Assembly (NCBI GenBank): GCA_963779975.1
Contig: CAWAAL010000024.1
Location: 57,153-121,152, forward strand
Length of the DNA: 64,000 nucleotides
Direction of reading: 5' to 3'
DNA from: an uncultured Planctomycetia bacterium
Lineage (GTDB): Bacteria; Planctomycetota; Planctomycetia; Pirellulales; Thermoguttaceae
Position numbers and translations under genes: made by a program. Shown here piece by piece: positions 10,249-47,571 of the stretch (position 1 is its first letter; the number at the start of each line of letters is the position of its first letter). The notes under the pieces were generated by a model. The model saw only the letters and a list, made by a program, of their open reading frames with translations, was not told where the DNA came from and did not search any database.

Positions 10249-10397
10249 TTGCCTTTGCCTCATAGCGGCATACAATGATGGCAGAGTCGCGATACACTCG
10301 ATCGCGACTCTGCAACAAGAATGTCGGATGACTAGATAGAGAGCAACCCGGCCGTACGGGGAGGCTCGTTAGTGAGTAAGCCGACGTGGTCGAATAG
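10249..10397 (+). ncRNA. multi-copy promoter-RNA element, copy 1 (3'-truncated, terminator missing); span includes promoter
   Basis: -35 TTGCCT 10249-54, 16-bp spacer, -10 TACAAT 10271-76; 5' hairpin gcagagtcgcgat/atcgcgactctgc; core tgtcggatgactagatagagagcaacccggccg...; homology ends at gtcgaata (10397) where the minus-strand transglutaminase fragment begins. Confidence 0.6.
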
Positions 10398-10819
10398 TCG
10401 TACAGCTCGCGCAGTTGCGTTTCCGGCAGTTCGACGGGCGCCAAATACGGGAAGAGCATCATGTGCTCCCAAGGCATCCAGACCAGTGGAAACGACGGAC
10501 GGATTGGCGCACGAGTGAAGGCGAACGGGTTGACGCCGGACAAGGCAATCGTGGACTCGGCCGTGAGTATGAGTTCCGTGTAGGGTTGGCTGATCTCGAA
10601 TCGACTGGCCGAATTGCCAAAGACATCTTCGAATTCCATGATCGGGACGGCGGGAACAATCTGCAAGCGATAGTTCAAGACGCTCTGATGGACGTCATTG
10701 ATCGGCCGCAGGTGGACGCAATGCTTGCTGTGCTGAACGGGCTGATTGTAACCAAACCGGGTCGTGTGCTTGACAGTCAAGCGACGGCTGCCAATCGTGG
10801 ACGGGACGGGCATGGTCAT
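10395..10819 (-). pseudogene. N-terminal fragment (~143 aa) of a transglutaminase-like protein (Bact_transglu_N domain), truncated at the junction with RNA-element copy 1
   Basis: 'MTMPVPSTIGSRRLTVKHTTRFGYNQPVQHSKHCVHLRPI...' is a typical Bact_transglu_N start; beyond ~aa 143 the ORF merely translates the repeat element. Confidence 0.5.
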
Positions 10820-10836
10820 GATGAGGGTCTGAACGG

Positions 10837-11241
10837 CTACTTCTTCTTAACGTCGCGGAGCATCGGCGACTCGGCCAGGGTGAAGAGAACGACCTCCTCG
10901 CCGGTGACGGTGCTAATGTCGTGGTGCATGCTCCGCACCTTGATGCCGGTGATCTCCTGGACCAGCGTTTCCAAGATCGGACGGGCCGTTTCGATCAGAT
11001 GCGTCCGCACTTGCTTGAGCAGGTCGCGCCCCTTCTCGGCAGAGAGCGACTTGACGAGTTGCTGCTCGGCGGCGGTCAAAACGCCTTGCAGGCGGACCAC
11101 GAGCAGATCGCCGAGCAGGTGCGCGTGAATATCCTTGGGTCCCCGGCCCATATAGTCCTGCTCGAAGCGTGTCACTGCTTCGCAGACGGCGGATTCGATC
11201 TCTCCGTGGGTTCTCATGGCAATTTCTCGCTGGGTTCTCAA
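10837..11241 (-). CDS. standalone DUF2294-like protein (134 aa)
   Basis: 'EIESAVCEAVTRFEQDYMGRGPKDIHAHLLGDLLVVRLQGVLTAAEQQLVKS...SMHHDISTVTGEEVVLFTLAESPMLRDVKKK'; stop TAG (plus-strand cta at 10837-39). Confidence 0.65.
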   Translation of the reverse strand: MRTQREIAMRTHGEIESAVCEAVTRFEQDYMGRGPKDIHAHLLGDLLVVRLQGVLTAAEQQLVKSLSAEKGRDLLKQVRTHLIETARPILETLVQEITGIKVRSMHHDISTVTGEEVVLFTLAESPMLRDVKKK

Positions 11242-11414
11242 GAAAGTGGATTATAGCAGATGAACGAAGTTGAGGAAAGCGGTCGAGTAACGCCCTTGAA
11301 CCAGTGGAAGGTCGATCGCCCCGGCGTTCTTGCCAGTCGGGTTATAGCCAGTCGGCAAGGGATCGCTAAAATATAGATGTAACCGCTCCAAAGAGCTTGA
11401 ATGCTCGGATTACG

Positions 11415-11530
11415 ATGAATGTTTGTCGGATGACTAGATGAAATACAACCCGGCCTTGCCGGGGGGTTCGTTGAAGAGTAAGCCGACGTGGCCGAATACC
11501 TGCGGGTGTTCCGCCACGTCGGCTTTTTTG
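11415..11530 (+). ncRNA. multi-copy RNA element, copy 2 (5'-partial: lacks canonical promoter and 5' hairpin; has core + terminator)
   Basis: tgtcggatgactagatgaaatacaacccggccttgccggggggttcgttgaagagtaagccgacgtggccgaatacctgcgggtgttccgccacgtcggcttttttg. Confidence 0.55.
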
Positions 11531-11604
11531 TTTCCGTGGTGCAAGACGGTCGGAATCCATTCACGGAAGGCTACTTCTCGGCCCAAGCATTGGAGGATAG
11601 GATC

Positions 11605-11883
11605 ATGTTGTTCTTGGCGCAATCACTACTCACGATGGCGGGCTTTGAGTACGACGAAATCGACGAAACCTGGGTAGCGCGAATGCCGTTGCGTCCTCTT
11701 GTGGCGGTCGAATGCGACGAGGATCGAGCTTACGTCCGGGAGGCGCTGAGGGAGGTCCAAGCGAGTCTTGACGCTATCGGCTGCGCCTACGACAACTACT
11801 TCGTGGTCAACGGCCGCTTCGTCTCCGTCCCAGGGCCTAGCGCCCGTGCGGCTACGGGTCTGGACGAACAGGATGACGGTTAA
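11605..11883 (+). CDS. hypothetical acidic small protein (92 aa) downstream of element copy 2
   Basis: RBS ggaggatagg before ATG 11605; protein-like composition; overlaps antisense ORF 11626..12048 whose first ~50 codons also look coding (unresolved). Confidence 0.35.
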   Translation: MLFLAQSLLTMAGFEYDEIDETWVARMPLRPLVAVECDEDRAYVREALREVQASLDAIGCAYDNYFVVNGRFVSVPGPSARAATGLDEQDDG

Positions 11884-12071
11884 AGTCGTCCCCATCCTGT
11901 GCAGGGCAGGATCGGATCGAGCCCGCTCAGCCAATGTCTCGTCAATCTGATGGATCATCCGGCAGGATCGGTCCATCAGGTCCCTCGCCTCCTGTTCATT
12001 GATCTTCAGGTTCCACTTCACGTCGTTGAGCCGCAGGTTACCACACAACTGAAGACCGTAATCGTGCGCGC

Positions 12072-12248
12072 CTACCCGGTCACGTTCTTCACGGCTTTCT
12101 TTACCGCGCAGGCAGCCTTTTGGACGGCCTGCTTCGCCTTCCCGACCACTTGGTCGGTCTTTCCTTCGTCACGAAGCTTGTCGTTGCCGGTCAGCGCCCC
12201 GGCGGCTTCCTTGATTCGACCCTTCACCACGTCTGTCTTGCCACCCAT
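12072..12248 (-). CDS. CsbD-family general stress protein (58 aa; below the ORF-track length cutoff)
   Basis: reverse-complement translation MGGKTDVVKGRIKEAAGALTGNDKLRDEGKTDQVVGKAKQAVQKAACAVKKAVKNVTG*; RBS ggagtcacc upstream. Confidence 0.6.
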   Translation of the reverse strand: MGGKTDVVKGRIKEAAGALTGNDKLRDEGKTDQVVGKAKQAVQKAACAVKKAVKNVTG

Positions 12249-12574
12249 GATGGTGACTCCTTTCCTATAAAGCCCGGAATGGAGAATGCAACAGGTAGGG
12301 CCAATGCAGCGAATTTCGGACGTAAGTGCTTCAAAGTGAAGTGGTTCCGCCGATGGCTGCGGTCATTCTCTGTGCCTCGCTGGGGAACAAACTGTTTCCA
12401 GCCAAGATGAAACAGGCCCAGCAATTCGGTCCATGCCGTCTCGTTGGATGGCAGCGGCACGAAGGGCAGCGTAGCCGACAGGCAAGGCTTCCCTTTCATG
12501 AACAAATGCCCTATTGGTTGTATTTAATTACAGCAGCCAAAGCAGGGGCCCACAAGGGTCCGGCGCCAGGAAAG

Positions 12575-12672
12575 GACCTGAACGGCTACTTCTTCTTTAC
12601 GTCGCGGAGAATGAGCGACTCGGCGCGGGTGAAGAGAACGACCTCCTCGCCGGTGACGGTGCTGATGTCGTT
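12575..12672 (-). pseudogene. 3' fragment (~27 codons + 10 nt downstream) of a DUF2294 gene, co-duplicated with element copy 3
   Basis: ctgaacggctacttcttctttacgtcgcggagaatgagcgactcggcgcgggtgaagagaacgacctcctcgccggtgacggtgctgatgtcg matches the 3' end of gene 10837..11241; rc encodes ...DISTVTGEEVVLFTRAESLILRDVKKK*. Confidence 0.6.
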
Positions 12673-12694
12673 TGAAAGAAAGCCAAAAGCTCTA

Positions 12695-12880
12695 TTGCCT
12701 TCGCCGCGTAGCGGCGTATGATAGTTGTATTGGGAGAATCGCGGCGCACTTGATCGCGACCTTTCAACGCAATTGTCGGATGACTAGATAGAGAGCAACC
12801 TGGATGTGCCAGGGGGCTCGTTGAAGAGTAAGCCGACGTGGTCGAATGCCTTCGGGTGTTCCGCCACGTCGGCTTTTTTC
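12695..12880 (+). ncRNA. multi-copy promoter-RNA element, copy 3
   Basis: -35 TTGCCT 12695-700, -10 TATGAT 12717-22 (16-bp spacer); 5' hairpin; core with compensatory cctggatgtgccagg hairpin; terminator gccgacgtgg...ccacgtcggcTTTTTT (12874-79). Confidence 0.65.
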
Positions 12881-12953
12881 GTTTTCGGTGTTGCGGGAAC
12901 AGTCGCAACGACCGAGCATGGTCCTTGGACAATCTCAAAAAGGGAGAGTTATC

Positions 12954-13028
12954 ATGTACATCGGTGGCGGATTGGTTACGCTTGTGATCATCGTCTTGGT
13001 TGTCATGTTCCTCGTTCGCGGCTCTTGA
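12954..13028 (+). CDS. possible 24-aa hydrophobic peptide (MYIGGGLVTLVIIVLVVMFLVRGS), resembles the C-terminal half of DUF3309
   Basis: RBS aaaagggagag 6 nt before ATG 12954. Confidence 0.25.
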   Translation: MYIGGGLVTLVIIVLVVMFLVRGS

Positions 13029-13075
13029 GCGTTCACGAAAGCAAGAACGAATCACAATTCACAAAGGATACTATC

Positions 13076-15096: not shown

Positions 15097-16311
15097 CTTG
15101 CTTCGCCCGAAGAAATACGAGCTGGAGATTCACGGCGCGAAGGTGAAACCAGGCTTCGAGGTCGATCCCGATGTCCCGGCCTGTCATTCGGAGGTGCGGG
15201 AACGTGTCCATAGGGTCCGGTCAGATCGCCTGTCGCCTTGCGGTTTGAGTCCTTATGACACGCCTTGGCGGCGGAACGACACCGGCCTTGCTGTGCCCAG
15301 TCCCACCGGGCAACCGTCGCTGAACGCCGCACTTTCGCCTCAATCTTCAGCGCCGGAGTCCAATTTTCCCGAACTACAGGCCATTCCCGATCTCGGCCCC
15401 CCGTCGTTCCCCGAAACGAATGGGCGGGAAGGCACGAGCCCGGCCGAGCCAGCCCTTGACCTGACTCGCAGCGTCGGACGGCCGGTCGCGCTTCCGCAGC
15501 AAACGTACACCCGCTCGTCGGAGTTATCCGACCGCTTGACGCAGATCGCACGCGGCAAGGGCATGCTCCCCGGTCAGGGCATCAACGTCTGCTCATAAGC
15601 AACGGCATCGCCCTCATGCACGGCACCGTCCGCACGCCCGGCGACTGCGTCCTGCTGGCGAACGTCCTGGCTCTCGAACCGGAGGTGCGGCAGATTGACA
15701 ACCGCTTGGTCGCCTTCGGTCCTCGGTAGGCTTTTTGGGCGATCGCCGGTGGCCGTTCGGGGTTCCGTGGCATTGACGCTTTGCGGGCGCTATCGTCGCT
15801 TGTACGCACTCCAGGGGGTAACTGGACGGGATTTCGCTGGTGTCGGCCGGCAAGGCCGGGTTCAGGCGATTACCGGGTCGATCGAGATTGTTGGCTGCGG
15901 CACGAATTGACCCGCCGACCTGAAACAGGGCGCGTAGCGTCGGTCCTGCACCACGGCATCCGGTCGAACCACCACCAGACGGCGCCCATGGCCACGAATT
16001 TGGCGGACCACGAGCACGGATTCCGCATTAAGAAGTGGACACCGAATGAGAGTGATGCCCAGAGTGCTGGGCCGGATCAGAAGGACAATGGGCCATGGCA
16101 GAAAGTGAAACCTTCCGGGCGCTGCACGACAACAGTACGACACCAAAGACAAACAGTGCGGCGCTCGGAGGTTCCTCCCGCGCCGGAAAAGCCGAGCCGA
16201 CACCTGTGCCAATGGCGCCGCACGCATGCGCGCTACAGTACCTCATTTCCATCATCAAGAACTCGCAACGCAGGAGCCCGTCACAATAGAACGACTGAAG
16301 GATGGTGCCTC

Positions 16312-17763
16312 ATGGTAACAATGGACAAGTCCGAACCGGGGTCGATTCGCACCTATCTGATGCAAATGGGCGACATCCCTCTGCTCAGCCGGAGCGAGGA
16401 GTTGGCGACAGCTCGTCAAATCGACAAGACTCGCGGTCGGCTGCGGCGTGGCATGTTGTCCGCCCACTTTATCCTTCACGCGGCGATCGCCGCGGCGGAA
16501 GAAGTCCTGAGCGGCAAGCTGCGGTGGGACCAGGTGATCGAGTTATCGAACGATGATCCCAGGAAGGGGCAGATAACTCAGCTCTTGGAGACGAATTGCC
16601 GGACGCTCGGTCAGCTCCTGCGCTTGAACCGGAATGATTTCCGCATCGCCGTCGGTCATCGGAAGCATTCGCCGGACGATCGTCGGGCCGCACGGCGGCG
16701 GCTAGTCCATCGCCGTCGAAGGGCGGCGTCGTTGATCGAGGAAGTCGCGGTGCGAATGCCCTGCATGCAGTCGGCGCTGACCACGCTCAGGCAGATGTCC
16801 GAACGGATGACCGCCGTCGCCGTAGCGCGGGCGAAAGTGCAATCGGTTGCTGGCGAAGAACACCAACTTGAAGAGCTGCGCAAGGAAATGCGCTGCCTGA
16901 TGCGGGTCACGCAGGAAACCCCAGCCACGTTGCGCCGACACTTGACGCGGATCGCGGCGATGAGCAAAGAGCATGCAGCGGCCCGCCGCGACCTGGCGGC
17001 GGGCAACCTCCGTCTGGTCGTCTCGATCGCCAAGCGATACCGCAATCGCGGGCTGAGCTTGTTGGACCTGATCCAGGAAGGTAATACCGGCCTGATGCGG
17101 GCCGTCGATAAGTTCGAGTCCGCCCGCGGCTTCCGCTTCTCGACCTACGCTACCTGGTGGATCCGCCAGGCCATGAGCCGGGCGATCGCCGACCAGAGCC
17201 GGACCATCCGCGTGCCGGTCCACATGATCGAAAAGATGGGCAAGGTCCGCGACATCAATCGCGATCTGGTTCACAACGAGGGCCGCGAACCGACCCTGGA
17301 GGAAGTGGCCCAACTCAGCGGGCTGTCGATCGCCGACACGCAGCGGGCCTTGAAGATGAGCCGGCAACCGCTTTCCTTGGACCAACCCGTGGGCCATCAG
17401 GAAGAGAACTTCCTTGGCGACCTGCTCTTCGATCATCGCGAAGAAGATCCGCTGGCCGGCATGAACCAGGCCATGCTTCGTTCGAGCATCACCGACGTTT
17501 TGCAGACGCTCGACTATCGCGAGCGGGAGATCCTGCGGCTGCGCTACGGGCTGGCCGACGGCTACACCTCGACACTGCAGGAGATCGGCCGGATCTTCTC
17601 CGTCACCCGGGAGCGGGTCCGCCAGATCGAGTCCGAGGCGATCCGCAAGCTCCAGCGTCCGGCTCTGTCTCGCAAACTCGCAGGCTTTCTGGATGAGCAG
17701 ATCCCGCTGCTGAGCAACATCAACTTCGGTCTCAGCGGGATCGCCATGGCCGGGAATTTGTGA
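16312..17763 (+). CDS. RpoD-family sigma-70 factor (regions 1.2, 2, 3, 4)
   Basis: '[54 protein letters not shown]', '[30 protein letters not shown]'; RBS aaggatgg before ATG 16312. Confidence 0.85.
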
Positions 17764-17954
17764 CGGCCTGCCGGGACCGACTGGCAGTGGTCCATCTCCG
17801 CTTCCTTGCCGGCGCAACCATCTTGGACGGCAGAGCCTTGGCGATAAATGGCGCGGTAACACTCGATGACAACACGATCACCGCGCCAAGTTCGGTTCCA
17901 GAACCCGTATCCCTAAGCCCCATTGCCTTTGCCCTTTGGCGGCGTAAAATGTGA
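17764..17954 (+). pseudogene. C-terminal remnant of a DUF3494 (ice-binding-like) protein with PEP-CTERM-like tail; 5' part missing (abuts the sigma gene stop)
   Basis: 'ATILDGRALAINGAVTLDDNTITAP' vs 'ATILNGRALAQTGAVTMDTNTISNV' in the 18149..20779 protein; tail 'SSVPEPVSLSPIAFALWRRKM*' where the last codons coincide with the -35/spacer/-10 of element copy 4. Confidence 0.5.
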
Positions 17955-18105
17955 GTGTTGGAAGAGTCGCATGGCAGATCGCGCTGCTCCAACGTAATTG
18001 TCGGATGACTAGAAAGAGGGCAACCCGGCCCTGCCGGGGGGCTCGTTAGCGAGTAAGCCGACGTGGTCGAATACCTCCGGGTGTTCCGCCACGTCGGCTT
18101 TTTTC
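17924..18105 (+). ncRNA. multi-copy promoter-RNA element, copy 4 (complete)
   Basis: -35 TTGCCT 17924-29, -10 TAAAAT 17945-50; 5' hairpin gttggaagagtcgcatggcagatcgcgctgctccaac; core; terminator with TTTTTT 18099-104; gene ATG at 18149. Confidence 0.7.
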
Positions 18106-22565: not shown

Positions 22566-22748
22566 TTGCCTTTACCCTTTGGCGGCGTACAATGTGACTG
22601 TTGGAAGAGTCGCATCGCAGATCGTGCTGCTCCAACGAAGTTGTCGGATGACTAGAAAGAGGGCAACCCGGCCCTGCCGGGGGGCTCGTTGACGAGTAAG
22701 CCGACGTGGTCGAATACCTCCGGGTGTTCCGCCACGTCGGCTTTTTTC
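22566..22748 (+). ncRNA. multi-copy promoter-RNA element, copy 5 (complete)
   Basis: -35 TTGCCT 22566-71, -10 TACAAT 22588-93; hairpin gttggaagagtcgcatcgcagatcgtgctgctccaac; core; terminator TTTTTT 22742-47; sigma gene ATG at 22778. Confidence 0.7.
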
Positions 22749-22777: not shown

Positions 22778-23791
22778 ATGTCGATCTTACCACACTTTCA
22801 CCAACCCCTGCAGACCGCGACAAAACAGCAGATTTTCCAGCAACATCGCCATGGCGACTCGGCGGAGTCGCTGGCCCGGCGTTTTTGTCGGTCCTGCACC
22901 CGCATTTACGGCATCATCAAGGAGATCCGGGCCGCACGGATCATGGAACTGCCGCTGGACTCCATGGGCAACGAGCAGTTTGCCCGCCTGTGCTCGGAGA
23001 AGAAGGAACGCGAGATATTACAGCCACCGCCGGAAGGCGATCTGGCGGCGAAGAAGTCGCGCGTGCCCGCCGGCATGCCCGCGTATCTGGCCAACCTGTA
23101 CGACGTGCCCCTGCTGACGCACGAGGAGGAGGTCCATCTCTTTCGGAAGATGAACTATCTCAAGTTCAAGGCGAGCGGGCTCCGCGACGCCCTCGACGTG
23201 AACCGGCCCAAGAGTTGCCTGATGGACCAGATCGAGGATCTGTACGACGAATCGGTCGCAGTCCAGAATCAGATCATCCGCGCCAACCTGAGGTTGGTGG
23301 TCGGGATTGCCAAGCGGTACGTCGGTCCGGCGGAAGACTTCTTCGAACTGGTCAGCGACGGGAACATGTCGTTGATCCGCGCCGTGCAGAAGTTCGATGT
23401 TTCGCGGGGCAACAGGTTCAGTACGTACGCAACTTGGGCGATCATGAAGAATTTCGCCCGCACGATCTCCGACGTGCTCCGTCAGCGGGGCCGTTTTTGC
23501 ACGAACCACGCGGAAACGTTCGGCGGCGCCGAGGATGACCGCACGGACCAGTACGAGCAGGCGTCGGCCCAAATCCAGCGGGAATCGCAAGTCGAGGGGA
23601 TCCTCGAGCGACTCGACGAGCGGGAGCGGCAGATTGTCACGAGCCGTTTCGGCCTGGCGCGCGGCCAGGAACCGCTGACCTTGAAGCAGGTCGGGGCTGC
23701 GATCGGCGTAACCAAAGAGCGGGTCCGTCAGATCCAGTGCCGGGCGATGAGCAAATTGAGAACGGCTGCCGAGGAGGACGGAATCGAGTGA
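22778..23791 (+). CDS. sigma-70 family sigma factor (group 3-like)
   Basis: '[39 protein letters not shown]', 'LTLKQVGAAIGVTKERVRQIQCRAMSKLR'. Confidence 0.8.
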   Translation: MSILPHFHQPLQTATKQQIFQQHRHGDSAESLARRFCRSCTRIYGIIKEIRAARIMELPLDSMGNEQFARLCSEKKEREILQPPPEGDLAAKKSRVPAGMPAYLANLYDVPLLTHEEEVHLFRKMNYLKFKASGLRDALDVNRPKSCLMDQIEDLYDESVAVQNQIIRANLRLVVGIAKRYVGPAEDFFELVSDGNMSLIRAVQKFDVSRGNRFSTYATWAIMKNFARTISDVLRQRGRFCTNHAETFGGAEDDRTDQYEQASAQIQRESQVEGILERLDERERQIVTSRFGLARGQEPLTLKQVGAAIGVTKERVRQIQCRAMSKLRTAAEEDGIE

Positions 23792-26743: not shown

Positions 26744-29150
26744 ATGACGACAAAAGCCCTTTCCCCCGAACTGCTCCAGAAGATGGACGCTTATTGGCGC
26801 GCCGCGAACTATCTCTCGGTCGGCCAGATTTACCTTTATGACAATCCCCTCCTGAAGCGGCCGCTTGCGCTTGCCGACGTGAAGCACATGCTGCTGGGAC
26901 ACTGGGGCACGACCCCCGGACAGAACTTCATCTACGCACACCTGAACCGGGTCATCAAGAAATACGACCTCGACATGATTTATGTCTCCGGTCCGGGGCA
27001 CGGCGGCCCGGCCGTCGTGGCCAACACGTACCTCGAAGGCACGTACAGCGAGGTCTATCCCGACATCAGCCAGGACGAGGCCGGGCTGCGGAAGCTCTTT
27101 CTGCAGTTCTCGTTTCCCGGAGGAATTCCCAGCCACGCATCGCCCGAGTGCCCGGGCTCGATCCACGAGGGCGGCGAGTTGGGCTATTCGCTCAGCCATT
27201 CGTTCGGAGCGGTGTTCGACAATCCCGGTCTCATCGTCGCCTGCGTCGTCGGCGACGGCGAGGCGGAGACGGGACCGCTGGCCACGGCGTGGCATTCGAA
27301 CAAGTTCCTCGATCCGGCCACCGATGGCGCGGTGCTGCCGATCTTGCATCTCAACGGCTACAAGATTTCCAACCCGACCATCCTGGCCCGCATCGAGCAC
27401 GAGGAATTGGAGCAGTTGCTCCGCGGCTACGGGTGGACGCCCTACTTCGTCGAGGGGCACGAGCCCGAACTGATGCACGAGGCGATGGCCGCGACGCTCG
27501 ACGCGGCGGTGGAGCAGATCCGACAAGTCCAGGACAACGCCCGCCGACCATCGGTAGATGGCGCCCCCTACAGCCTGACGCGTCCGCGCTGGCCGATGAT
27601 CGTGCTGAACTCGCCCAAGGGCTGGACGGGGCCGAAGATGATCGATGGATTGCAAGTGGAAGGCACCTTCCGGGCGCACCAGGTGCCGCTCTCCGATCCG
27701 GCGACGCATCCGGAACACCTCAAGCTGCTGGAAGACTGGCTGAGGAGCTACCGGCCGGAGGAACTCTTCGACGATTCAGGCCGCCTGAAAGCGGAGTTGG
27801 CCGAACTGGCGCCCCAAGGCCAGCGGCGCATGGGCGCCAATCCCCACGCCAACGGCGGCCTGCTGCTCCGCGACCTGCGGATGCCGGACTTCCGCGACTA
27901 CGCGGAAGCCGTACCCTCGCCGGGCGCGCGCGGCATCGGCGAACGTCCACGTGCTCGGGCCTTTCCTCCGCGACGTGGCGAAGCTCAACGCCGAGCCGAC
28001 CATGGGTACACGGTGCCCGAACTTTCGCGTCTTCGGCCCTGACGAGACGCTCTCCAACGGCCTGGAGGCCCTTTTCGAAGTGACGCAGCGCCAATGGGAC
28101 GCCGCAACCGTGCCCAACGACGAATTCCTCGCGCCCGCGGGGCGGGTGATGGAAATGCTCAGCGAACATCAATGCGAGGGCTGGCTCGAAGGCTACCTGC
28201 TCACCGGGCGGCATGGACTCTTCAACTGCTACGAGGCCTTCATCCACATCGTCGATTCGATGTTCAACCAGCACGCCAAGTGGCTGAAGGTCACGTCGCG
28301 CTTGCCGTGGCGGCGGAAGATCGCCTCGCTGAACTACCTGCTGGCCTCGCACGTCTGGCGCCAGGACCACAACGGTTTCACGCACCAGGACCCCGGTTTC
28401 ATCGATCACGTCCTGAACAAGAAGGCCGAAATCGTCCGCGTTTACCTCCCCCCGGACGCCAACTGCCTGCTCTCCGTGATCGACCACTGCCTCCGCAGCC
28501 GGCATTACGTGAACGTCGTGGTCGCGGGCAAACACCCCGCGCCGCAGTGGCTGACGATGGACGCCGCCGTCAAGCACTGCACCGAGGGCATCGGCATCTG
28601 GCCGTGGGCGAGCAACGACCAGGGCGTCGCCCCCGACGTGGTCATGGCCTGCTGCGGCGACGTGCCCACGCTGGAGACGCTCGCCGCCGTCTCGATCCTC
28701 CGCGAGCATCTGCCGGAGTTGAAGATCCGGGTGCTCAACGTCGTCGACCTCATGCGGCTGCAACCGCAAAGCGAACACCCGCACGGGCTGAGCGACATGG
28801 ATTTCGACGAGCTTTTCACCAAGGACAAGCCGGTCATCTTCGCGTTCCATGCCTACCCATGGCTGGTCCACCGGCTGACCTACCGCCGCACCAACCACCG
28901 CAACATCCACGTCCGCGGCTACAAGGAAGAGGGCACCATCACCACGCCCTTCGACATGACGGTGCTGAACGATCTGGACCGCTTCCATCTTGTGATGGAC
29001 GTCATCGACCGCCTGCCGCAGACCGGCGACAAGGGCATCTATCTCAAGCAGCAACTCAAGGACAAGCTCATCGAGCACAAGCAATACATCGAGAAGTACG
29101 GCCAGGACCTGCCGGAAATCCGCAACTGGAAGTGGGACAACCTCAAATGA
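26744..29150 (+). CDS. xfp: xylulose-5-phosphate/fructose-6-phosphate phosphoketolase (802 aa); apparent frameshift ~27935-27950
   Basis: '[20 protein letters not shown]', 'GPGHGGPA', '[20 protein letters not shown]'; C-terminal half continues in ORF 27951..29150 ('FLRDVAKLN...[13 protein letters not shown]'). Confidence 0.85.
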
Positions 29151-29367
29151 ATGCACAAGCGCTTATGGACTGCCCGCGCTGTCCAGCAACCGGCATTGGA
29201 GACTTGGCAAGGCAAGGAGGCCCACGTAACGGCGGCACGGCAAGCCCTGGTTCATCGGGCCCGGTGCAACCGGGCAGCGCGTCGCGGCGAATATGATGCC
29301 GCGATGGAACGAATACGAGCGTCACAACAAGTGTCCGGCAACTCATGTAACTTGTGAAACTGAAGGG

Positions 29368-30396: not shown

Positions 30397-30581
30397 TTGC
30401 CTTTTTTGCGTGGCTGGTTACAATGACCGGTGGGAAGAGTCGCGGCGGACTAGACTGTGGCTTTTCACTGGAATTGTCGGATGACTAGATAGAGGGCAAC
30501 CCGGCCGTGCCGGGGGGCTCGGTAGCGAGTAAGCCGACGTGGTCGAATACCTGCGGGTATTCCGTCACGTCGGCTTTTTTC
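30397..30581 (+). ncRNA. multi-copy promoter-RNA element, copy 6 (complete)
   Basis: -35 TTGCCT 30397-402, -10 TACAAT 30419-24; core tgtcggatgactagatagagggcaacccggccgtgccgggggg; terminator TTTTTT 30575-80. Confidence 0.7.
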
Positions 30582-30636: not shown

Positions 30637-31170
30637 ATGTCCGAGAAGAAGTCCGTTGTCGCTATTTTTGAAACCCACGATCAAGCCGAGGACGCTGTTC
30701 GCGAACTCCAGAAGGACGGCTTCGACATGAAGAAGCTGTCGATCGTCGGCAAGGCTTACCTCACGGACGAGCACGTCGTCGGCTACTACAACACGGGCGA
30801 CCGCATGATGTATTGGGGCAAGCTGGGGGCCTTCTGGGGCGGCTTCTGGGGACTGCTCTTCGGCTCCGCGTTCTTCTGGGTGCCGGGCATCGGTCCGCTC
30901 GTCGTGGCGGGACCGTTGGTGACCTGGATCGTCGCCGGGCTCGAAGGCGCCGTCATGACAGGATCGCTCACCGCTCTCGGCGCAGGACTCTACAGCATCG
31001 GGATTCCCAAGAACAGCATCGTAGAATACGAGACCGAGGTGAAGAGCGGCAAGCTTCTCCTGGTTGCCCACGGAACGGCCGACGAAGTGGAACACGCCCG
31101 GGACCTCCTGCATCAGACGGGAGTGGAGACAGCAACGGTTCATGCGGAGCGGGTCGCAGTCGGCGTCTAA
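30637..31170 (+). CDS. stress-associated membrane protein, DUF1269/YflT-like (N-terminal soluble domain + Gly-rich TM region)
   Basis: 'SVVAIFETHDQAEDAVRELQKDGFDMKKLSIVGK' then 'GAFWGGFWGLLFGSAFFWVPGIGPLVVAGPLVTWIVAGLEGAVMTGSLTALGAGL'. Confidence 0.45.
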   Translation: MSEKKSVVAIFETHDQAEDAVRELQKDGFDMKKLSIVGKAYLTDEHVVGYYNTGDRMMYWGKLGAFWGGFWGLLFGSAFFWVPGIGPLVVAGPLVTWIVAGLEGAVMTGSLTALGAGLYSIGIPKNSIVEYETEVKSGKLLLVAHGTADEVEHARDLLHQTGVETATVHAERVAVGV

Positions 31171-38336: not shown

Positions 38337-38522
38337 TTGCCTTTTCCCTTCGGCGGCGTACAATTTCAGTGTTGGAAGAGTTGCGGGGCACTTGTTCGCG
38401 GCTCTCCAGTGAAATTGTCGGATGACTAGATAGAGGGCAACCTGGCTGTGCCGGGGGGCTAGTTGAAGAGTAAGCCGACGTGGTCGAACACCTTAGGGTA
38501 TTCCGCCACGTCGGCTTTTTTG
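38337..38522 (+). ncRNA. multi-copy promoter-RNA element, copy 7 (complete; 3' extension box aacggtcggaatccagcacggaag shared with copy 2)
   Basis: -35 TTGCCT 38337-42, -10 TACAAT 38359-64; hairpin gttggaagagttgcggggcacttgttcgcggctctccag; core with cctggctgtgccgggg; TTTTTT 38515-21. Confidence 0.7.
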
Positions 38523-38605: not shown

Positions 38606-39052
38606 ATGAGTCGAGATGCAATTGACAGAATGGAAATCCTCATGGTCGAGGATAACTTGCAGAATGCCAACGGCACGATACAGGCCCTCAAATGGGGCAA
38701 CGTGCAATGCCGAGTGAGCCTGGTCTGCGATGACGAGGAAGCGATCCGCTTTCTCTACCGTAAGGGTGAATTCGCCAAGGCGCCGACGCCCAACCTGATC
38801 CTGCTGGACATGCAGTTGCCCAAGGAGGAAGGTCAGCGCTTGCTTGCGGAAATCCGCGCCAACGAAGAACTCAAGGACATTCCCGTTGTGGTCCTCACCG
38901 GTTCACTGGATCACCGAGCGGGTCTTCACGTCCAAGAGATTCAGGTGGACGGCTTGATCACGCACCCCGTGGAGTTGGACAAGTTCATCGGTGTGGTCAA
39001 GTCGCGTCGCCGGTCTTGGTTGACCGACCTTGCGCTGTCCTCCATTGCCTGA
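38606..39052 (+). CDS. single-domain response regulator (REC only)
   Basis: 'ILMVEDNLQNANGTIQALKW...LILLDMQLPKEEGQRLLAEIRANEELKDIPVVVLTGS'; RBS ggaggtga. Confidence 0.75.
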   Translation: MSRDAIDRMEILMVEDNLQNANGTIQALKWGNVQCRVSLVCDDEEAIRFLYRKGEFAKAPTPNLILLDMQLPKEEGQRLLAEIRANEELKDIPVVVLTGSLDHRAGLHVQEIQVDGLITHPVELDKFIGVVKSRRRSWLTDLALSSIA

Positions 39053-40257: not shown

Positions 40258-40444
40258 TTGCCTTTGTACCCTCATGACGTACAATGATGGTGTTGGAAGA
40301 GTCGTGGCGCGATTGATCTCGACTCTCCAGCGAACGTGTCGGATGACTAGATGAAGAGCAGCCCGGCTGTGCCGCGGGGGCTCGTTAGTGAGTAAGCCGA
40401 CGTGGTCGAATACCTTGGGGCATTCCGCCACGTCGGCTTTTTTC
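40258..40444 (+). ncRNA. multi-copy promoter-RNA element, copy 8 (complete; preceded by a degraded DUF2294 tail at ~40130-40200)
   Basis: -35 TTGCCT 40258-63, -10 TACAAT 40280-85; hairpin ggaagagtcgtggcgcgattgatctcgactctcc; TTTTTT 40438-43. Confidence 0.7.
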
Positions 40445-40453: not shown

Positions 40454-40525
40454 AGAACGTTCGGAAGAAATTGGTGCCAGTCACACGTTTGTCCCGGGCT
40501 TCCGCTCATTTCTTCCGAACGTTCT
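40454..40525 (+). promoter_or_regulatory. 5'-UTR hairpin: 18-bp perfect inverted repeat with 36-nt loop, 20 nt upstream of RBS/ATG 40545; paralogous copy at 48350-48421
   Basis: agaacgttcggaagaaat ...36 nt... atttcttccgaacgttct. Confidence 0.6.
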
Positions 40526-40544: not shown

Positions 40545-41531
40545 ATGCGTAGTGTTTTGATCATGACAGGCGTGGCTCTCGCGCTGGTCGCGATGGCGGT
40601 TGCCCAAGGACCACTGAAGAGCGTATCGGGCGACTTGCCCGACAAGCCCGCCGCGTCCGATACGGCAACGACGGCAACCGCCGCGTTTGTGGCCAGCCTG
40701 GCGCAGCCGCAAGACGAGAAGTCGATCCGGCTCGCCGCCGAGGCGTTTGCCAAGGCGTATAATGCGGGCAATGCCCAGACGATCGCGCAACTGTTCATAC
40801 CCAGCGGGGAGATAGTCAGCGAAGAAGGCCAATCTACTCAGGGCCGCGAAGCGATCGAGCAAGAGTTCGCAGGAATCTTCAAGGAACATCCCAAGACCCA
40901 CATGGTTCTGGCCATCGGCTCCATTCGGTTCATCGGTCCGGACATGGCCGTCGAGGACGGGACGGCGACCGTGACCCATGGGCCCGACGAGCCCGCCCAG
41001 CGCAGTCCCTACTCGGTGACCTACGCCAGGCAGGACGGCAGGTGGCTGACGGCCAGCTCGCGAGACCTTCCCGATGACACGCCCACGCCCGAGGAGCAGC
41101 TCAAGCAACTCCAGTGGATGATCGGCGAATGGGTGGACGAAAGCCCGGAAGCCCTGATCATGACCTCCTACCGCTGGACCGACAATCAATGCTACATCTT
41201 GAGCGAATTCAAGGTCCAGGTCGGCGGCCGGCCGGTGATGACCGGTACCCAGCGCATCGGCTGGGACCCCTTGGCAAAGAAGATCCGTTCCTGGGTCTTC
41301 GACTCGGAAGGCGGGTTTGGCGAAGGTCTCTGGACGCGGGAAGGCAACCAATGGATCGTGAAAAGGACCGGCGTGACGCGTGACGGAAAGACCGCCTCGG
41401 CGACCAACATCATCGCCCGAGTATCCAAGGACCGAATGACGTGGCAACAACGGGACCGCATCGTCGGCGGGGAGAAGACGCCCGACATCGCGGAAACCCC
41501 GATCACGCGTAATCCGCCCGCCCCCAAATAA
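40545..41531 (+). CDS. secreted protein with two SnoaL-like/DUF4440 (NTF2-fold) domains
   Basis: signal peptide 'MRSVLIMTGVALALVAMAVAQG'; 'AFAKAYNAGNAQTIAQLFIPSGEIV...GREAIEQEF' and a second NTF2-like half. Confidence 0.5.
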   Translation: MRSVLIMTGVALALVAMAVAQGPLKSVSGDLPDKPAASDTATTATAAFVASLAQPQDEKSIRLAAEAFAKAYNAGNAQTIAQLFIPSGEIVSEEGQSTQGREAIEQEFAGIFKEHPKTHMVLAIGSIRFIGPDMAVEDGTATVTHGPDEPAQRSPYSVTYARQDGRWLTASSRDLPDDTPTPEEQLKQLQWMIGEWVDESPEALIMTSYRWTDNQCYILSEFKVQVGGRPVMTGTQRIGWDPLAKKIRSWVFDSEGGFGEGLWTREGNQWIVKRTGVTRDGKTASATNIIARVSKDRMTWQQRDRIVGGEKTPDIAETPITRNPPAPK

Positions 41532-41576
41532 CACGCCAACTTCGCAGCTTGATCTGCATAGACCGGAGAAATACCA

Positions 41577-43228: not shown

Positions 43229-43339
43229 GGATCGGCGGGCTCGAGATTCGGACCACCCGACCCCATCTTGACCTGCGCGGCCGCGGGTGCGACAATGCTG
43301 TCGTACTTGGTCCTAAGGCCATTGGTGAGTCGGACGGCC

Positions 43340-43918
43340 ATGAAATCGAGCCGATCTTCTCGTGTCACGCAACTCCTGGAGAAACCCGGACCGGGGGACC
43401 GCCCTGCCGCAGAGCAGTTGTTTGCGGACGTCTACGGCGAACTGCGATCGCTTGCCGCGCGATACCTGCACCGGGAACGAAAGAGCCATACGCTTCAGCC
43501 GACCGCGCTGGTTCACGAAGCCTACTTGAAGCTCGTCGGTCAAACGCGCGTGGATTGGCAGGGCCGGGCCCATTTCCTGGCCATTGCCGCTCACGCCATG
43601 CGAGAGATCCTCGTCGATCATGCTCGGCGGCATAAGGCAAAAAAGCGGGGTGGCAATCGGCATCGCATCGCGCTGGACGACAACCTGGCCGTCGAGTCCA
43701 ATCGCGACGTGGACCTGTTGGCGCTGGAAGACGCCTTGGCCAAGCTCGCAAAGCTCGACCCGCGCCAGGCCCAAATGATCGAACTCCGATTCTTTGGCGG
43801 CCTGGACATCGCGGAAGTCGCGAAGGTGATGGGGATGTCCAAACGATCGGTGGAGCGGGAATGGACCATGGTTCGCGCCTGGTTGCGGCGGGAACTCGGC
43901 AGGAGCGGCACGCCATGA
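43340..43918 (+). CDS. ECF sigma factor (Ser/Thr-kinase-associated type)
   Basis: 'LFADVYGELRSLAARYLHRERKSHTLQPTALVHEAYLKLV', 'AQMIELRFFGGLDIAEVAKVMGMSKRSVEREW'; stop overlaps the kinase ATG. Confidence 0.8.
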   Translation: MKSSRSSRVTQLLEKPGPGDRPAAEQLFADVYGELRSLAARYLHRERKSHTLQPTALVHEAYLKLVGQTRVDWQGRAHFLAIAAHAMREILVDHARRHKAKKRGGNRHRIALDDNLAVESNRDVDLLALEDALAKLAKLDPRQAQMIELRFFGGLDIAEVAKVMGMSKRSVEREWTMVRAWLRRELGRSGTP

Positions 43919-45002
43919 ATGCGGAGCGCTATGCGCAGGTCCGAAGACTGTTCCTGGCCGCGTGCGAGCTTGCCGAAAGTGAGATGGGCGCGTTTCTCGA
44001 TCACGCCTGCGCGGGCGATCCCGAGCTTCGCGAGGAACTGGAATCCCTGCTGAAGCAACCTCGCGCGACGACCATCATCGGCACGTCAAGCGAAGACGCC
44101 GCCCGCGGCAAGGTCCTTTCCCCCCTCGCCCATCTTCCGCAGTGAACTTGTTCCCGCCGATATCCCCCTTGAGGCGGCACGGGCTGGGAATCCGTGGCGT
44201 TTTTCGCCGGGTGAAATCATTGCCGCCCAGCGCTACAAGATTCTGGGGCCGCTGGGCGGAGGCGGCGCCGGCGAGGTCTACAAGGCGCACGATCAGATCA
44301 TGGATCAAGACGTGGCGTTGAAGTTTCTCGCCCCCGGGCAGAGCGGCGGCGACCCGACGTGCAGCCGTTTCGTGAGCGAAGTCGCGATGGCCCGTGAAGT
44401 TGCCCATCCGAACGTGGTCAGGGTCTACGACGTCGGCCAACTTGCCGACGGCGAGGTGTTTCTGTCGATGGAGTTCATCGACGGCGAAGACCTTGCGTCG
44501 TTGCTCCGCCGCGCCGGCAGGCTCTCGCCTGAAAAGACCGTGCAAATCGCCCGGGAACTGTGCGCCGGGCTGGGCGGCCGCGCACGATCATGGCGTGTTG
44601 CACCGGGACCTGAAGCCGTCCAATATCTTGATCGACGGAGACGGTCACGTGCATATCGCCGATTTCGGCATTGCGGCTTTCGTTCCCACTGCCGCAGGCG
44701 AGATTCCTTTGGCCGGGACACCCGCTTTCATGGCCCCCGGGTTGTTTCACCACAAGCAACCCTCGAAACAAAGCGACCTCTATGCGCTGGGGATCGTGCT
44801 GTATGAAGTGGCCACGGGAAGGGAGCCCTTCGGCGGCGTGCCGGCCGACGGCCTCCAAGCCGCTGCCGAACTGGTTCCGCCTTCGGTGCTGTGTCCCGAA
44901 ATCGGGCCTGCCCTGGAACGGGCCATCCTGCGGTGCTTGGAAGAAGATCCGGGCCGGCGGCCCGAATCCGCGGAAGCTGTTGCGGCCCTTCTGCCGCGAT
45001 AG
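43915..45002 (+). CDS. Ser/Thr protein kinase with the N-terminal ECF-partner domain; 2 apparent frameshifts (~44120 c6-run; ~44580 +g)
   Basis: 'MNAERYAQVRRLFLAACEL...PELREELESLLKQ'; 'YKILGPLGGGGAGEVYKA', 'VALKFL', then 'HDHGVLHRDLKPSNILIDGDGHVHIADFGIA', 'SDLYALGIVLYEVATGREPF'. Confidence 0.7.
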
Positions 45003-45007
45003 GTTCC

Positions 45008-46570
45008 CTAGTTGTCCACGTCCTTCCGGAGGGGCAATTGGACCACGATCCGGGTTCCCTTGCCCAAGCTGCTCGTGATGGTCGCGGATCCCCCAAACAA
45101 CTTTGCGCGTTTCTGAATTCCTTCCAAGCCAAAGTGGCCGTCGCCGACTTCACGGGGATTGAAGCCGATGCCCCAGTCTTGGACCTCAATCAGAACGTGC
45201 CGGTTCCGCCGGGTCAACCTGACGAGCACGCGCTCGCTCTGGCTGTAGCGGCGGGCGTTGGCAAGGCCCTCTTGCAGGATCCGATAAATGGTATTTTCCG
45301 ACGCGGGCTCCCACCGCTCGCCGTCGAGGTTATGGACGAACTCGATCTCTGGTTTGCCCGGAGCGCTGCCTTGGGAGATAAGGTCCTCGATGGCAGCCAC
45401 CACGCCGCATTCGTCCATGAGCGGTGAACGCAGTCCACGGATCAACCGGCGTGCTTCCCGCATACAGTCGTCAAGCGCTCTTAGTCCAGTCTCGAAACTC
45501 GTCCAGACCTCGCCGTCTCCCTCTCCTTTGAACCGGCTGAACGCCGCAAAGTGCGTGATCGCGGCGGCGAGTTGCTGGACGAATCCGTCGTGGATTTCGC
45601 AGGAAACCACTTGTCGATCCCGGTCCTGCAATTCCAGCAAGTGGCGGAGATACTGCTGCTCCTTGAGCGACTGTTCCTCTGTCTGCCGACGCTCCTTGAT
45701 CTCCGGCCTCGACGGTTCGGCGGCTTGATCGCGGCCAAGCCCGGCGGCGTGCCCAGGGACGGGATCGGTATCCAGGCCCAGGAACTGCGGACCTTGCGAC
45801 GCCCACTCGGTCGGGTCCAAGGGCCCCGTGACCCTAGTAAGACCGAGATCCAGCGTGCGGAGTTGTCTCAACCCCTTGAGGTGCTCCATGCCGGCGTCGC
45901 TGACCTCGGTGCCGCGGAGGCCCAGCGACTGGAGTTGCCTCAATCCCTTGACGTGTTCCAGGCCGGCGTCCGTGACCTTGGTGCCGCCGAGGTCGAGTTC
46001 TCGAAGTCGGGGCAGACCCCTGAGGTGCTTCAGATCGGCGCCGGTAGCCCAGAAGCACAATTCTTCGAGTTCGGGCAGACCGCGGAGGTGCTGCAAACCG
46101 GCATCGGTGACTTCGGTGCCGCCGAGCCCCAGTTCTTGGAGTTGCCGCAACGCCTGGAGGCGCTTCAGACCGGCGTCGGTGACCTTGGCGCCGCTGAGGT
46201 CCAGCGTCTGGAGTTGGGGCAGATCCTCAAGGTGCTCCAGGCCGGCGTCGCTGACCTCGGCGCCGCCGAGGTCCAGCGTCTGGAGTTGGAACAGACCCTT
46301 GAGGTGTTCCAGACCGGCGTCGCTGACCTTGGTGCCGCCGAGGTCCAGCGTTTGGAGTTGCGTCAGCCCCTTCAGGTGTTCCAAACCGGCGTCGCCGACT
46401 TCCGTGTGGGAGAGATACAACTCTCGGAGCAGGGGCAAGTCCTTGAGGCACTCCAAGGCGTCGTCGTCGAGCAGGCACCAGGAGAGGTCAACGGATATCG
46501 CAACGTCGCCTCGCAACAACTGGATCTTGGCAATCGCCTCTGCGCAATCCGGGTAATCTGGCTTCATCAT
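45008..46570 (-). CDS. cytoplasmic leucine-rich-repeat (9 x 24-aa LRR) - HisKA_3 - HATPase_c sensor histidine kinase
   Basis: repeats 'LxxLxxLDLGGTKVSDAGLEHLKG'; 'VVSCEIHDGFVQQLAAAITHFAAF' (HisKA_3 H-box); 'LQEGLANARRYSQSERVLVRL...DWGIGFNP...GLEGIQKRAKLFGG'. Confidence 0.75.
   Translation of the reverse strand: MMKPDYPDCAEAIAKIQLLRGDVAISVDLSWCLLDDDALECLKDLPLLRELYLSHTEVGDAGLEHLKGLTQLQTLDLGGTKVSDAGLEHLKGLFQLQTLDLGGAEVSDAGLEHLEDLPQLQTLDLSGAKVTDAGLKRLQALRQLQELGLGGTEVTDAGLQHLRGLPELEELCFWATGADLKHLRGLPRLRELDLGGTKVTDAGLEHVKGLRQLQSLGLRGTEVSDAGMEHLKGLRQLRTLDLGLTRVTGPLDPTEWASQGPQFLGLDTDPVPGHAAGLGRDQAAEPSRPEIKERRQTEEQSLKEQQYLRHLLELQDRDRQVVSCEIHDGFVQQLAAAITHFAAFSRFKGEGDGEVWTSFETGLRALDDCMREARRLIRGLRSPLMDECGVVAAIEDLISQGSAPGKPEIEFVHNLDGERWEPASENTIYRILQEGLANARRYSQSERVLVRLTRRNRHVLIEVQDWGIGFNPREVGDGHFGLEGIQKRAKLFGGSATITSSLGKGTRIVVQLPLRKDVDN
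45850..46420. repeat. ~72-bp near-perfect tandem DNA repeats encoding the LRR units
   Basis: recurring ...ccggcgtcgctgacctcggtgccgcggaggcccagcgactggagttgc... blocks. Confidence 0.7.
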
Positions 46571-46670
46571 TCACTATTCCTTAATTCGCTCCCTACTGTT
46601 AATGCGAAATCCGCGCTGTGCGTCCGCCAGATTCCGAAAATCGCAGACGCGGAAAAAGACGACAATCCAC

Positions 46671-46862
46671 TTGCTTTCCTCATGCCGCGCCATACAATGG
46701 TTAATGGAGGGGTGGCGAAGTCGAAAGCCGCTCGCCCCAGAAGTGAATTGGAAGTCGTCGGACGACTAGATAAAGAGCAAGCCGGCCGTGCCGGGGGGCT
46801 CGTTAGTGAGTAAGCCGACGTGGCGGAATACCTCCGGGTGTTCCGCCACGTCGGCTTTTTTC
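46671..46862 (+). ncRNA. multi-copy promoter-RNA element, copy 9 (variant: TTGCTT -35, tcgtcggacgactag core)
   Basis: -35 46671-76, -10 TACAAT 46693-98; core gtcgtcggacgactagataaagagcaagccggccgtgccgggggg; TTTTTT 46855-61. Confidence 0.65.
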
Positions 46863-46899
46863 GTTCTTGATCGTTTCTTAACCAATACAGAGGATCGTC

Positions 46900-47115
46900 A
46901 TGAGAAGGCTGATGTTCGTGGTCGTTTTGCTCGTGATCGGCATCGCCGGCTTCGGGTATTACCGCGGTTGGTTCGCTTTCACGGTGGACAAAGACAAGTT
47001 CCACCAAGATGAACAAACAACCAGGGAAAGGGTGCAAGGCGCCGGGCAAGAGGCCAAGGAAAAGGTCGACAATCTGACTGGCGGCAAGGTCAAAGAACCC
47101 CAGCGCCAACCCTGA
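46900..47115 (+). CDS. small N-terminally anchored membrane protein (71 aa)
   Basis: 'MRRLMFVVVLLVIGIAGFGYYRGWFAF...'; RBS cagaggatcg. Confidence 0.45.
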   Translation: MRRLMFVVVLLVIGIAGFGYYRGWFAFTVDKDKFHQDEQTTRERVQGAGQEAKEKVDNLTGGKVKEPQRQP

Positions 47116-47200
47116 GACTTTACACTTTGTGGATGCTAATCACGGACCATGTTGGCATTTCGCCAACTTGGGCACACTATACGTGAAGGAGAATTTGATC

Positions 47201-47377
47201 ATGTTACGGCTTGCTATCGTGTTCCTCGTCATCGCCCTGATCGCCGGGTTCCTCGGCTTTGCAGGAGTGGCACAATTATCCTGGGACGGAGCGAAGATCC
47301 TCTTCGTTGTCTTCCTGATCCTCGCCGTGCTCTCTTTCGTGGGGCACGGTTTCCGGAGGCGACCCTACTGGGGGTAA
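47201..47377 (+). CDS. DUF1328 (UPF0391) small membrane protein
   Basis: 'MLRLAIVFLVIALIAGFLGFAGVAQLSWDGAKILFVVFLILAVLSFV'; RBS gaaggagaat. Confidence 0.6.
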   Translation: MLRLAIVFLVIALIAGFLGFAGVAQLSWDGAKILFVVFLILAVLSFVGHGFRRRPYWG

Positions 47378-47384
47378 CGCATAG

Positions 47385-47571
47385 TTGCCTTTTTCCCCTT
47401 GCGGCGTATAATGATGGTGCTGGCAGAACCGCGACGCACTTCATCGCGACTCTGGCAGTGAAATTGTCGGATGACTAGATAGAGAGCAACCCGGCCGTGC
47501 CGGGGGGCTCGTTAGCGAGTAAGCCGACGTGGTCGAATACCTGCGGGTGTTCCGTCACGTCGGCTTTTTTG
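47385..47571 (+). ncRNA. multi-copy promoter-RNA element, copy 10 (complete), directly upstream of hsp20
   Basis: -35 TTGCCT 47385-90, -10 TATAAT 47407-12; hairpin; core tgtcggatgactagatagagagcaacccggccgtgccgggggg; TTTTTT 47565-70, 29 nt before the ATG. Confidence 0.7.

Follow-up and report, generated by a model that had tools for sequence, protein, structure and literature searches.

A phylum-wide stress-gene leader RNA of Planctomycetota, most likely a conditional transcription terminator

Leader RNAs that overlap transcription terminators, families of sibling small RNAs (sRNAs) and one orphan planctomycete motif are the described systems closest to the RNA element that we report here. Riboswitches and orphan riboswitch candidates (c-di-GMP-I/GEMM, and ykkC before a ligand was assigned) sit in the 5' leader with a conserved and covarying fold, use a closing helix that shares nucleotides with an intrinsic terminator, and can occur in many copies per genome before linked genes. 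In protein-dependent attenuation—ANTAR proteins EutV/AmiR, PyrR, the ribonucleic antiterminator (RAT) targets of BglG/SacY, and TRAP—an RNA element again overlaps the terminator, and a response regulator with an unusual output domain can be encoded beside the controlled genes. Sibling sRNAs (Qrr1-5, LhrC1-5, PrrF, AbcR) are near-identical copies with their own promoter, a Rho-independent terminator and possibly a single-stranded conserved stretch. Finally, the Rhodopirellula-1 motif is found mainly in Planctomycetes upstream of short hypothetical genes, with 36 instances in R. baltica that cluster and lie at least 500 nt apart, and its consensus is AAC(A/C)A, a bulged hairpin with a variable-size loop, and (G)ACGUU (Weinberg et al. 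2010, PMC2864571). Apart from that consensus, the element described here resembles each of these systems in the traits just listed, its closing helix being a predicted one. It is present in 11 copies in a stretch of 64,000 nt ("the window") from an uncultured Planctomycetia bacterium of the family Thermoguttaceae (assembly GCA_963779975.1, contig CAWAAL010000024.1, positions 57,153 to 121,152), and in many other members of a phylum in which gene regulation is largely uncharted: the terms riboswitch, sRNA, small RNA, stress response, sigma factor and CsrA are all absent from a 2025 review of Planctomycetota.

The differences from these systems are equally clear. Unlike riboswitches, the element has a conserved terminator sequence and a promoter that is conserved along with the RNA, its regulon is of the general-stress type rather than a single pathway, and it has no counterpart in Rfam: the whole window gave no match to Rfam 15 (4227 models) at gathering thresholds, and a relaxed search (E up to 10) returned two chance-level matches near copy 4 (E = 1.6 and 4.3). 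Unlike ANTAR-controlled leaders, it has no dual hexaloop motif, and the output domain of the neighboring regulator is MpsC/DUF2294 (V4R-like) rather than ANTAR or PRD; an ANTAR-controlled leader was rejected for these reasons, the element being one long irregular hairpin where tandem hexaloops are expected. Unlike sibling sRNAs, its copies keep to a 5' leader position ~50 nt ahead of co-oriented genes and are conserved across a phylum, not a genus or family. With Rhodopirellula-1 it shares a planctomycete-centered distribution, clustered copies and a position before genes. However, identity with that motif, which is not in Rfam, was rejected as the published alignment differs in both sequence and shape, and our core strings are absent from the searchable part (200 of 438) of the supplementary files of PMC2864571. 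Rhodopirellula-1 itself looks more like integron attC sites than like a regulatory RNA. BLAST of one copy against phage and plasmid collections returned nothing, and we found no description of the core sequence or of such a motif in the literature available without subscription. The family is therefore best viewed as undescribed, while its probable principle—a choice between terminator and antiterminator—is known.

The main finding of this study is that the element is a functional structured RNA, which is strongly supported by covariation among homologues, G.U pairs that fix the strand, a promoter at a fixed distance and co-oriented downstream genes. Species-representative genomes were scanned with the pattern GTCGGAYGACTAG-N20-50-AGTAAGCCGAC, which yielded at least 118 stretches, and nhmmer and a covariance model then delineated at least 180 elements in the scanned loci and the window (~120 loci, nearly all from metagenome-assembled genomes), 42 of the 180 lying outside the seed pattern. 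All share a core, GUCGGAYGACUAG...GAGUAAGCCGAC, followed by a terminator; the conserved folded RNA spans ~105 nt, terminator included. The genomes are labeled Pirellulales, Pirellulaceae, Thermoguttaceae, Gemmataceae, Isosphaeraceae, Planctomycetaceae, Phycisphaerae and Tepidisphaeraceae. Four loci carry other labels—delta proteobacterium (L032), Victivallales (L057), Chloroflexota (L073) and Methanomassiliicoccaceae archaeon (L102)—and are probably mis-binned planctomycete contigs. Covariation was controlled by 500 column shuffles and by recomputing the paired fraction after sliding the partners. In the alignment of core and terminator (132 copies), 97% of cells pair versus 26-49% with partners slid, and 20 of the 30 pairs (146 cells) have changed on both sides, values that none of the 500 shuffles reached by any of five measures. 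Many conserved G.U pairs fit the + strand only, and this is therefore the RNA strand. Copies outside the seed pattern add compensated variants of an otherwise invariant ACU/AGU helix termed P1a (ACG/CGU and ACC/GGU) and of the terminator base (GCCGGC...GCCGGY and GCCGAU...AUCGGC), and CGGA is invariant in every copy, the divergent ones included. The consensus structure is one long irregular hairpin that runs from GUCGG through an AYG loop, ACU, purine-rich internal loops and GRGC to a CCCGG hairpin and back. Two further candidate features were dropped: tandem G.A positions of the internal loop (columns 16/17 versus 60/61), at first suspected to covary, did not do so consistently, and an ACGKTCG box after the U-tract is present in only 13 of 177 copies.

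These constraints bear directly on the idea that the element works as DNA, whether as a promoter-plus-operator cassette for a transcription factor such as the linked receiver-MpsC regulator or a stress sigma factor—in which case the hairpins would be merely a 5' untranslated region and a terminator, with no sensing—or as mobile or repetitive DNA such as repetitive extragenic palindromes (REP), miniature inverted-repeat transposable elements (MITE) or attC sites. The invariant core lies just past the start site, a common place for operators, sequence alone cannot tell whether its invariance reflects RNA or DNA, and a regulator and a kinase are tightly linked to the arrays. However, P1a, P2, P3 and the terminator carry compensatory changes and G.U pairs, which are constraints at the level of RNA; the conserved 13-mer that opens the core is nonpalindromic; and terminal inverted repeats, target duplications and attC R''/R' sites are all absent. 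In addition, all copies have a single orientation relative to genes, no DNA-binding fold is seen in the MpsC model, and an exact 24-nt match that extends over the classes of a phylum would be out of character for REP or attC. We consider a DNA-level function very improbable, and repetitive or mobile DNA (REP, MITE or attC) was rejected in view of the restriction to the + strand, the strand-specific G.U helices, and the promoter and terminator.

The 11 window copies (Table 1) show how uniform the element is. The 14-mer TGTCGGATGACTAG occurs in nine exact copies, one copy with one mismatch and one with two mismatches, all on the + strand, where 0.26 would be expected, and the covariance model recovers exactly these 11 copies, again all on the + strand, with no further divergent ones. 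Ten copies score 97-117 bits (copy 2, 115.7 bits). The low score of copy 1 (61.5 bits) results from its being cut off inside the terminator, homology stopping at ~10396; this copy, which carries the most perfect 5' stem (13 bp, z = -7), has either decayed or become a variant with constitutive read-through. A promoter of the form TTGCNT-N16-TAYAAT, mostly TTGCCT-N16-TACAAT, precedes all 11 copies with its spacer fixed at 16 nt. The leader that follows is 43-60 nt long and folds into a hairpin—the 5' stem-loop (SL1) or an unrelated one—after which come the invariant 13-mer, a long irregular hairpin capped by a small CCCGG...CCGGG stem and, in all copies except copy 1, a terminator with a 20-bp hairpin, GCCGACGUGG...CCACGUCGGC, and at least six U. 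RNAfold shows this hairpin and U-tract in 10 of the 11 copies, while a simple terminator scanner missed nine of the 10 because of one conserved mismatch in the stem. An open reading frame (ORF) on the + strand starts 30-110 nt beyond each window terminator. Copies are dense, with 11 in 38 kb in the window and five in 8 kb in another locus (L114).

The initial annotation of this stretch had reached the same conclusion, a functional RNA, by a different route, arguing from compensatory base changes between the SL1s of ten copies at 10283-47470. Those ten copies are real, but the total is 11, since copy 11 (core at 48230) lies beyond that range. The stem sequences that the annotation quotes are present and do fold: a homologous SL1 with the consensus UGGAAGAGUCGCGGCGCACUUGAUCGCGACUCUCCA is found in eight window copies, with free energies of -13.7 to -24.3 kcal/mol, and copies 2, 9 and 11 carry unrelated hairpins at the same site. 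In these eight, 84% of cells pair versus 34-50% with partners slid. However, only one pair (one cell) of the 15-pair structure is changed on both sides, which 444 of 500 shuffles equal, and the covariation score lies under the mean of the shuffles. G-C/G-U changes and broken pairs make up most of the differences; the SL1s of copies 4 and 5 have lost the middle of the helix to internal loops, and that of copy 8 has a U.U. One genuine additional compensation, an A-to-C change matched by C-to-G in copies 1 and 10, lies outside the fixed register. The small hairpin in the core, also said to covary, does so in copy 3, which has a true C-G to U-A compensation, and not in copy 7, which has only a G.U wobble. 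The annotation had itself named, as an outcome that would refute it, covariation that loses significance once shared descent is allowed for, and within the window the covariation is indeed not significant. Window copies are ~80% identical, and SL1 pairing within the window is explained by this common descent. The inference of a functional RNA stands, but on homologues in other genomes, the promoter and gene co-orientation rather than on the in-window changes cited for it.

Across genomes the picture for SL1 is different. Among 44 homologues, 82% of cells pair versus 38-51% with partners slid, 10 of the 15 pairs show two-sided changes, and the observed values are matched by 1-9 of 500 shuffles. 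SL1 is thus a real 5'-terminal hairpin, yet an optional one, because 23 homologues have a -10 box 5-20 nt before the core, leaving no SL1 there, and because other lineages have unrelated 5' hairpins (e.g., GGAGC...GCUCC). Compared with dinucleotide shuffles, leaders with the homologous type of SL1 fold with a median z of -2.4 and the others with a median z of -1.7. Hairpins at the 5' end are known stabilizers of RNA, and by analogy SL1 may be an accessory that, for example, protects or stabilizes the 5' end and lies outside the sensor.

Another significant result is that the element occupies the 5' leader position of co-oriented genes, as judged from orientation and distance. A coding-scored, co-directional ORF lies behind 168 of the 180 elements, at a median of 47 nt between U-tract and start codon. 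Because random positions proved uninformative as a control (internal in-frame starts score well), we compared strands instead: between +120 and +420, coding follows the strand of the element in 121 cases and the other strand in 32 (p = 2e-13), whereas the upstream region has no strand bias (74 versus 69). The downstream genes form a coherent set of the general-stress type. A Pfam census of 150 downstream ORFs found MpsC/DUF2294 (36), Transgly_assoc (seven), DUF3309 (six), CsbD, HSP20 and glycosyltransferase (four each), KaiC, CsrA, receiver, BON, Sigma70 and YflT (three each) and DUF1328 (two); GlsB is also in the set. Small proteins of this kind are typical of general stress regulons in other phyla. 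The element offers a sequence signature that marks a general-stress-type regulon phylum-wide.

This arrangement is what separates a leader from its main rival, a family of multicopy trans-acting sibling sRNAs with their own promoter, a 5'-proximal seed (GUCGGAUGACUAG), a structured body and a Rho-independent terminator, whose targets would be distant mRNAs or a protein to be titrated, and for which read-through into the neighboring gene would be incidental or secondary. Such an architecture is the canonical one of Hfq-type sRNAs; for 23 homologues, the predicted transcript starts only a few nucleotides from the conserved 13-mer; the terminator sequence is itself conserved, and the terminator form is the thermodynamic ground state; and copy number is high, as noted above for the window and L114. 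Against this, the orientation bias toward the downstream gene has no equivalent upstream, the median gap leaves no space for a separate downstream promoter, the downstream genes are a coherent stress set, and an antisense copy of the 13-mer with at most one mismatch is found nowhere in 906 kb of planctomycete DNA, a search that shorter seeds would escape. The combination that defines Hfq-type sRNAs, a target-complementary seed and no fixed relation to neighbors, was not found. The orientation bias, the 47-nt gap and the lack of an antisense 13-mer thus favor a cis-acting leader, and we regard the sRNA reading as unlikely, although the two functions are not mutually exclusive.

How might such a leader work? 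We consider it probable that it is a conditional terminator, or attenuator. Each copy would be a small transcription unit made of a sigma-70-type promoter, usually SL1, a ~65-nt hairpin domain and a strong intrinsic terminator, in which the 5' arm of the terminator (GCCGAC) would double as the 3' strand of the closing helix (P1) of the domain. The 5' GUCGG and the GUCGGC of the 3' terminator arm are identical in sequence, and each can pair with the single GCCGAC, for which they would compete. If P1 is held, the terminator would be incomplete when RNA polymerase reaches the U-tract, and the polymerase would enter the stress gene ~50 nt farther on; if P1 opens, transcription would stop and a short RNA of ~105-150 nt would be released. 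Folding predictions are consistent with regulated termination and with P1 as the putative switch helix. Nucleotides 1-63 alone fold with P1 closed (GUCGG/CCGAC, -33.8 kcal/mol), while the full RNA favors the terminator form (-58.7 versus -48.7 kcal/mol for the P1 form), in which the 5' end folds into a GUC-GGAU-GAC mini-hairpin; on these models, the layout is that of a kinetically controlled ON switch. Natural variation around P1 is compatible with a switch without being decisive. Seventeen of the 18 substitutions in CCGAC are transitions that keep both pairings (with GUCGG via G.U, and with the terminator arm), and one full P1 compensation is seen (AUCGG/CCGAU), whereas the upper terminator, which is free of P1, shows double changes of the transversion type.

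Several observations weigh against this mechanism. P1 is unproven by covariation, because its outer two positions vary without compensation in 11 copies (GCCGG, CUCGG, AUCGG, UUCGG). The terminator form exceeds the P1 form in stability by ~10 kcal/mol, and the terminator sequence shows more conservation than is usual for the expression platform of a riboswitch, both of which would also fit a stand-alone sRNA. Moreover, the exact 24-nt seed pattern inflates the apparent sequence conservation, which the 42 non-pattern copies correct only in part.

The attenuator would be either a riboswitch or a protein-controlled leader, placing many stress operons under one signal across Planctomycetota, and candidate effectors are an ion or small molecule, a protein that binds GGA (e.g., CsrA), and the output of the linked kinase/receiver-MpsC phosphorelay. 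In its boldest form, which we put forward tentatively and think more doubtful than conditional termination as such, the ~65-nt domain would be the aptamer of an unrecognized riboswitch class that senses a stress-related small molecule or ion and controls the general-stress regulon of the phylum. If true, dozens of operons per genome, including those for sigma factors, csrA and DUF2294 proteins, would be controlled directly by such a class.

A protein effector brings in a CsrA-type target or sponge. The terminated form would present GGA in the loop of the GUC-GGAU-GAC hairpin, where CsrA would block P1 and enforce termination, so that the regulon would be turned on once CsrA is relieved. The numerous short RNAs might instead titrate CsrA. 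The mini-hairpin is part of the minimum-free-energy fold of the terminated form, the CGGA that it contains is invariant in all copies, the stretch CGGAUGA resembles the core of the hcnA RsmE/CsrA site, and csrA lies directly behind an element in three of the 150 cases (e.g., 1731-1913 on the - strand of L029), a placement indicating that CsrA either belongs to the regulon or feeds back on it. Nevertheless, CsrA dimers normally need two sites, and each core has one GGA rather than at least two such motifs presented in loops. The GGA of SL1 is not conserved, being absent from copies 1 and 10, and CsrA binding would leave unexplained why the entire 65-nt hairpin, internal loops included, is conserved. 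We judge CsrA as the key to the element to be improbable.

The other protein candidates are encoded next to the arrays. Upstream of the elements in the window (4313-9971) and in four further loci (L119-L122) lies the same row of genes for a CheB/CheR-PAS protein, a PAS hybrid kinase and a receiver-MpsC response regulator, with an Hpt protein added in L121. Homologues of the regulator number more than 1100; among the best 120, identity is 75-100% and the two-domain architecture is kept throughout. Four loci that were retrieved with the regulator protein, not with the RNA, have the same gene order and contain four, two, two and one elements within ~0.2-6 kb, which precede BON, DUF3309, MpsC and sigma-70 genes. 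Kinase and receiver-MpsC regulator are thus linked to elements in five of five loci, and MpsC-domain ORFs are present in 54 of 119 loci. From this linkage, the kinase is a candidate upstream regulator, and the receiver-MpsC protein a candidate regulator of the regulon. A conserved phosphorelay that ends in a receiver-DUF2294 protein makes the function of DUF2294/MpsC testable, while the element itself is a structured RNA with good support whose hundreds of natural variants could go directly into screens for ligands or proteins, and it is also a compact natural promoter-leader-terminator module that could serve genetic tools in these bacteria.

Table 1. Features of the window, with the parts of each element copy and the genes that follow.
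Feature	Position	Strand	Parts or domains	Context
Hybrid histidine kinase	7184-8995	+	PAS-HisKA-HATPase-REC (REC, receiver)	Synteny conserved in L119-L121
Response regulator	9114-9971	+	Receiver and MpsC/DUF2294 domain (V4R-like fold)	Immediately precedes copy 1
Copy 1, truncated	10249-10396	+	Promoter 10249-10276 (TTGCCT-16-TACAAT); SL1 10281-10313; core 10323-10385; no terminator	
Copy 2	11345-11529	+	Promoter 11345-11372; nonhomologous weak 5' hairpin 11379-11413; core 11425-11487; terminator 11482-11529	ORF from ~11605, unknown protein
Copy 3	12695-12879	+	Promoter 12695-12722; SL1 12726-12771; core 12775-12837; terminator 12832-12879	24-aa hydrophobic ORF 12954-13028, then 579-aa protein
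Sigma-70	15781-17763		660 aa, regions 1.2-4	
Copy 4	17923-18104	+	Promoter 17923-17950; SL1 17957-17993; core 18000-18062; terminator 18057-18104	Ice-binding-like/SdrD surface protein gene, ending 20779
Copy 5	22566-22747	+	Promoter 22566-22593; SL1 22599-22637; core 22643-22705; terminator 22700-22747	Sigma-70-family gene (next row), then HAD, acetate kinase, phosphoketolase and PPK2 genes on the same strand
Leader-controlled sigma-70-family factor	22778-23791		337 aa, Mor-like N terminus	Behind copy 5
Copy 6	30397-30580	+	Promoter 30397-30424; SL1 30428-30470; core 30476-30538; terminator 30533-30580	YflT-like stress protein gene 30637-31170
Copy 7	38337-38521	+	Promoter 38337-38364; SL1 38372-38409; core 38417-38479; terminator 38474-38521	Receiver-domain protein gene 38606-39052
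Copy 8	40258-40443	+	Promoter 40258-40285; SL1 40291-40332; core 40338-40401; terminator 40396-40443	SnoaL/DUF4440 protein gene 40545-41531
ECF (extracytoplasmic function) sigma	43268-43918			
Copy 9	46671-46861	+	Promoter 46671-46698; nonhomologous 5' hairpin 46709-46738; core 46757-46819 (CGUCGGACGACUAG); terminator 46814-46861 (perfect 20-bp stem)	71-aa membrane protein ORF 46900-47115
Copy 10	47385-47570	+	Promoter 47385-47412; SL1 47419-47459; core 47466-47528; terminator 47523-47570	Hsp20-like gene 47600-48010, whose homologues at other loci match Pfam HSP20
Copy 11	48139-48338	+	Weak promoter 48139-48166 (TATAAT); nonhomologous 5' hairpin 48170-48217; core 48230-48296; terminator 48291-48338	Glycosyltransferase gene 48448-49683, heading an operon

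Three sigma factor genes lie within 28 kb of the window, one of them behind copy 5. Sigma-70-family genes under the control of a leader recur in L028, L121 and L122, which suggests that the sigma factor of the regulon is autoregulated. Two genes of the window appear to be broken. The CheB/CheR-PAS gene (4313-7272) is represented by three overlapping ORFs, versus a single ORF of ~1000 aa in L120 and L121, and the phosphoketolase gene (26744-29296) also seems to be divided, a 432-aa ORF containing XFP_N by itself; both may be frameshifts, due to assembly errors or marking pseudogenes. Finally, copies 8 and 11 have a second, near-perfect hairpin of ~72 nt between terminator and start codon (40454-40525 and 48350-48421, respectively), AGAACGTTCGGAAGAAAT...ATTTCTTCCGAACGTTCT, with the palindrome GAACGTTC in its stem.

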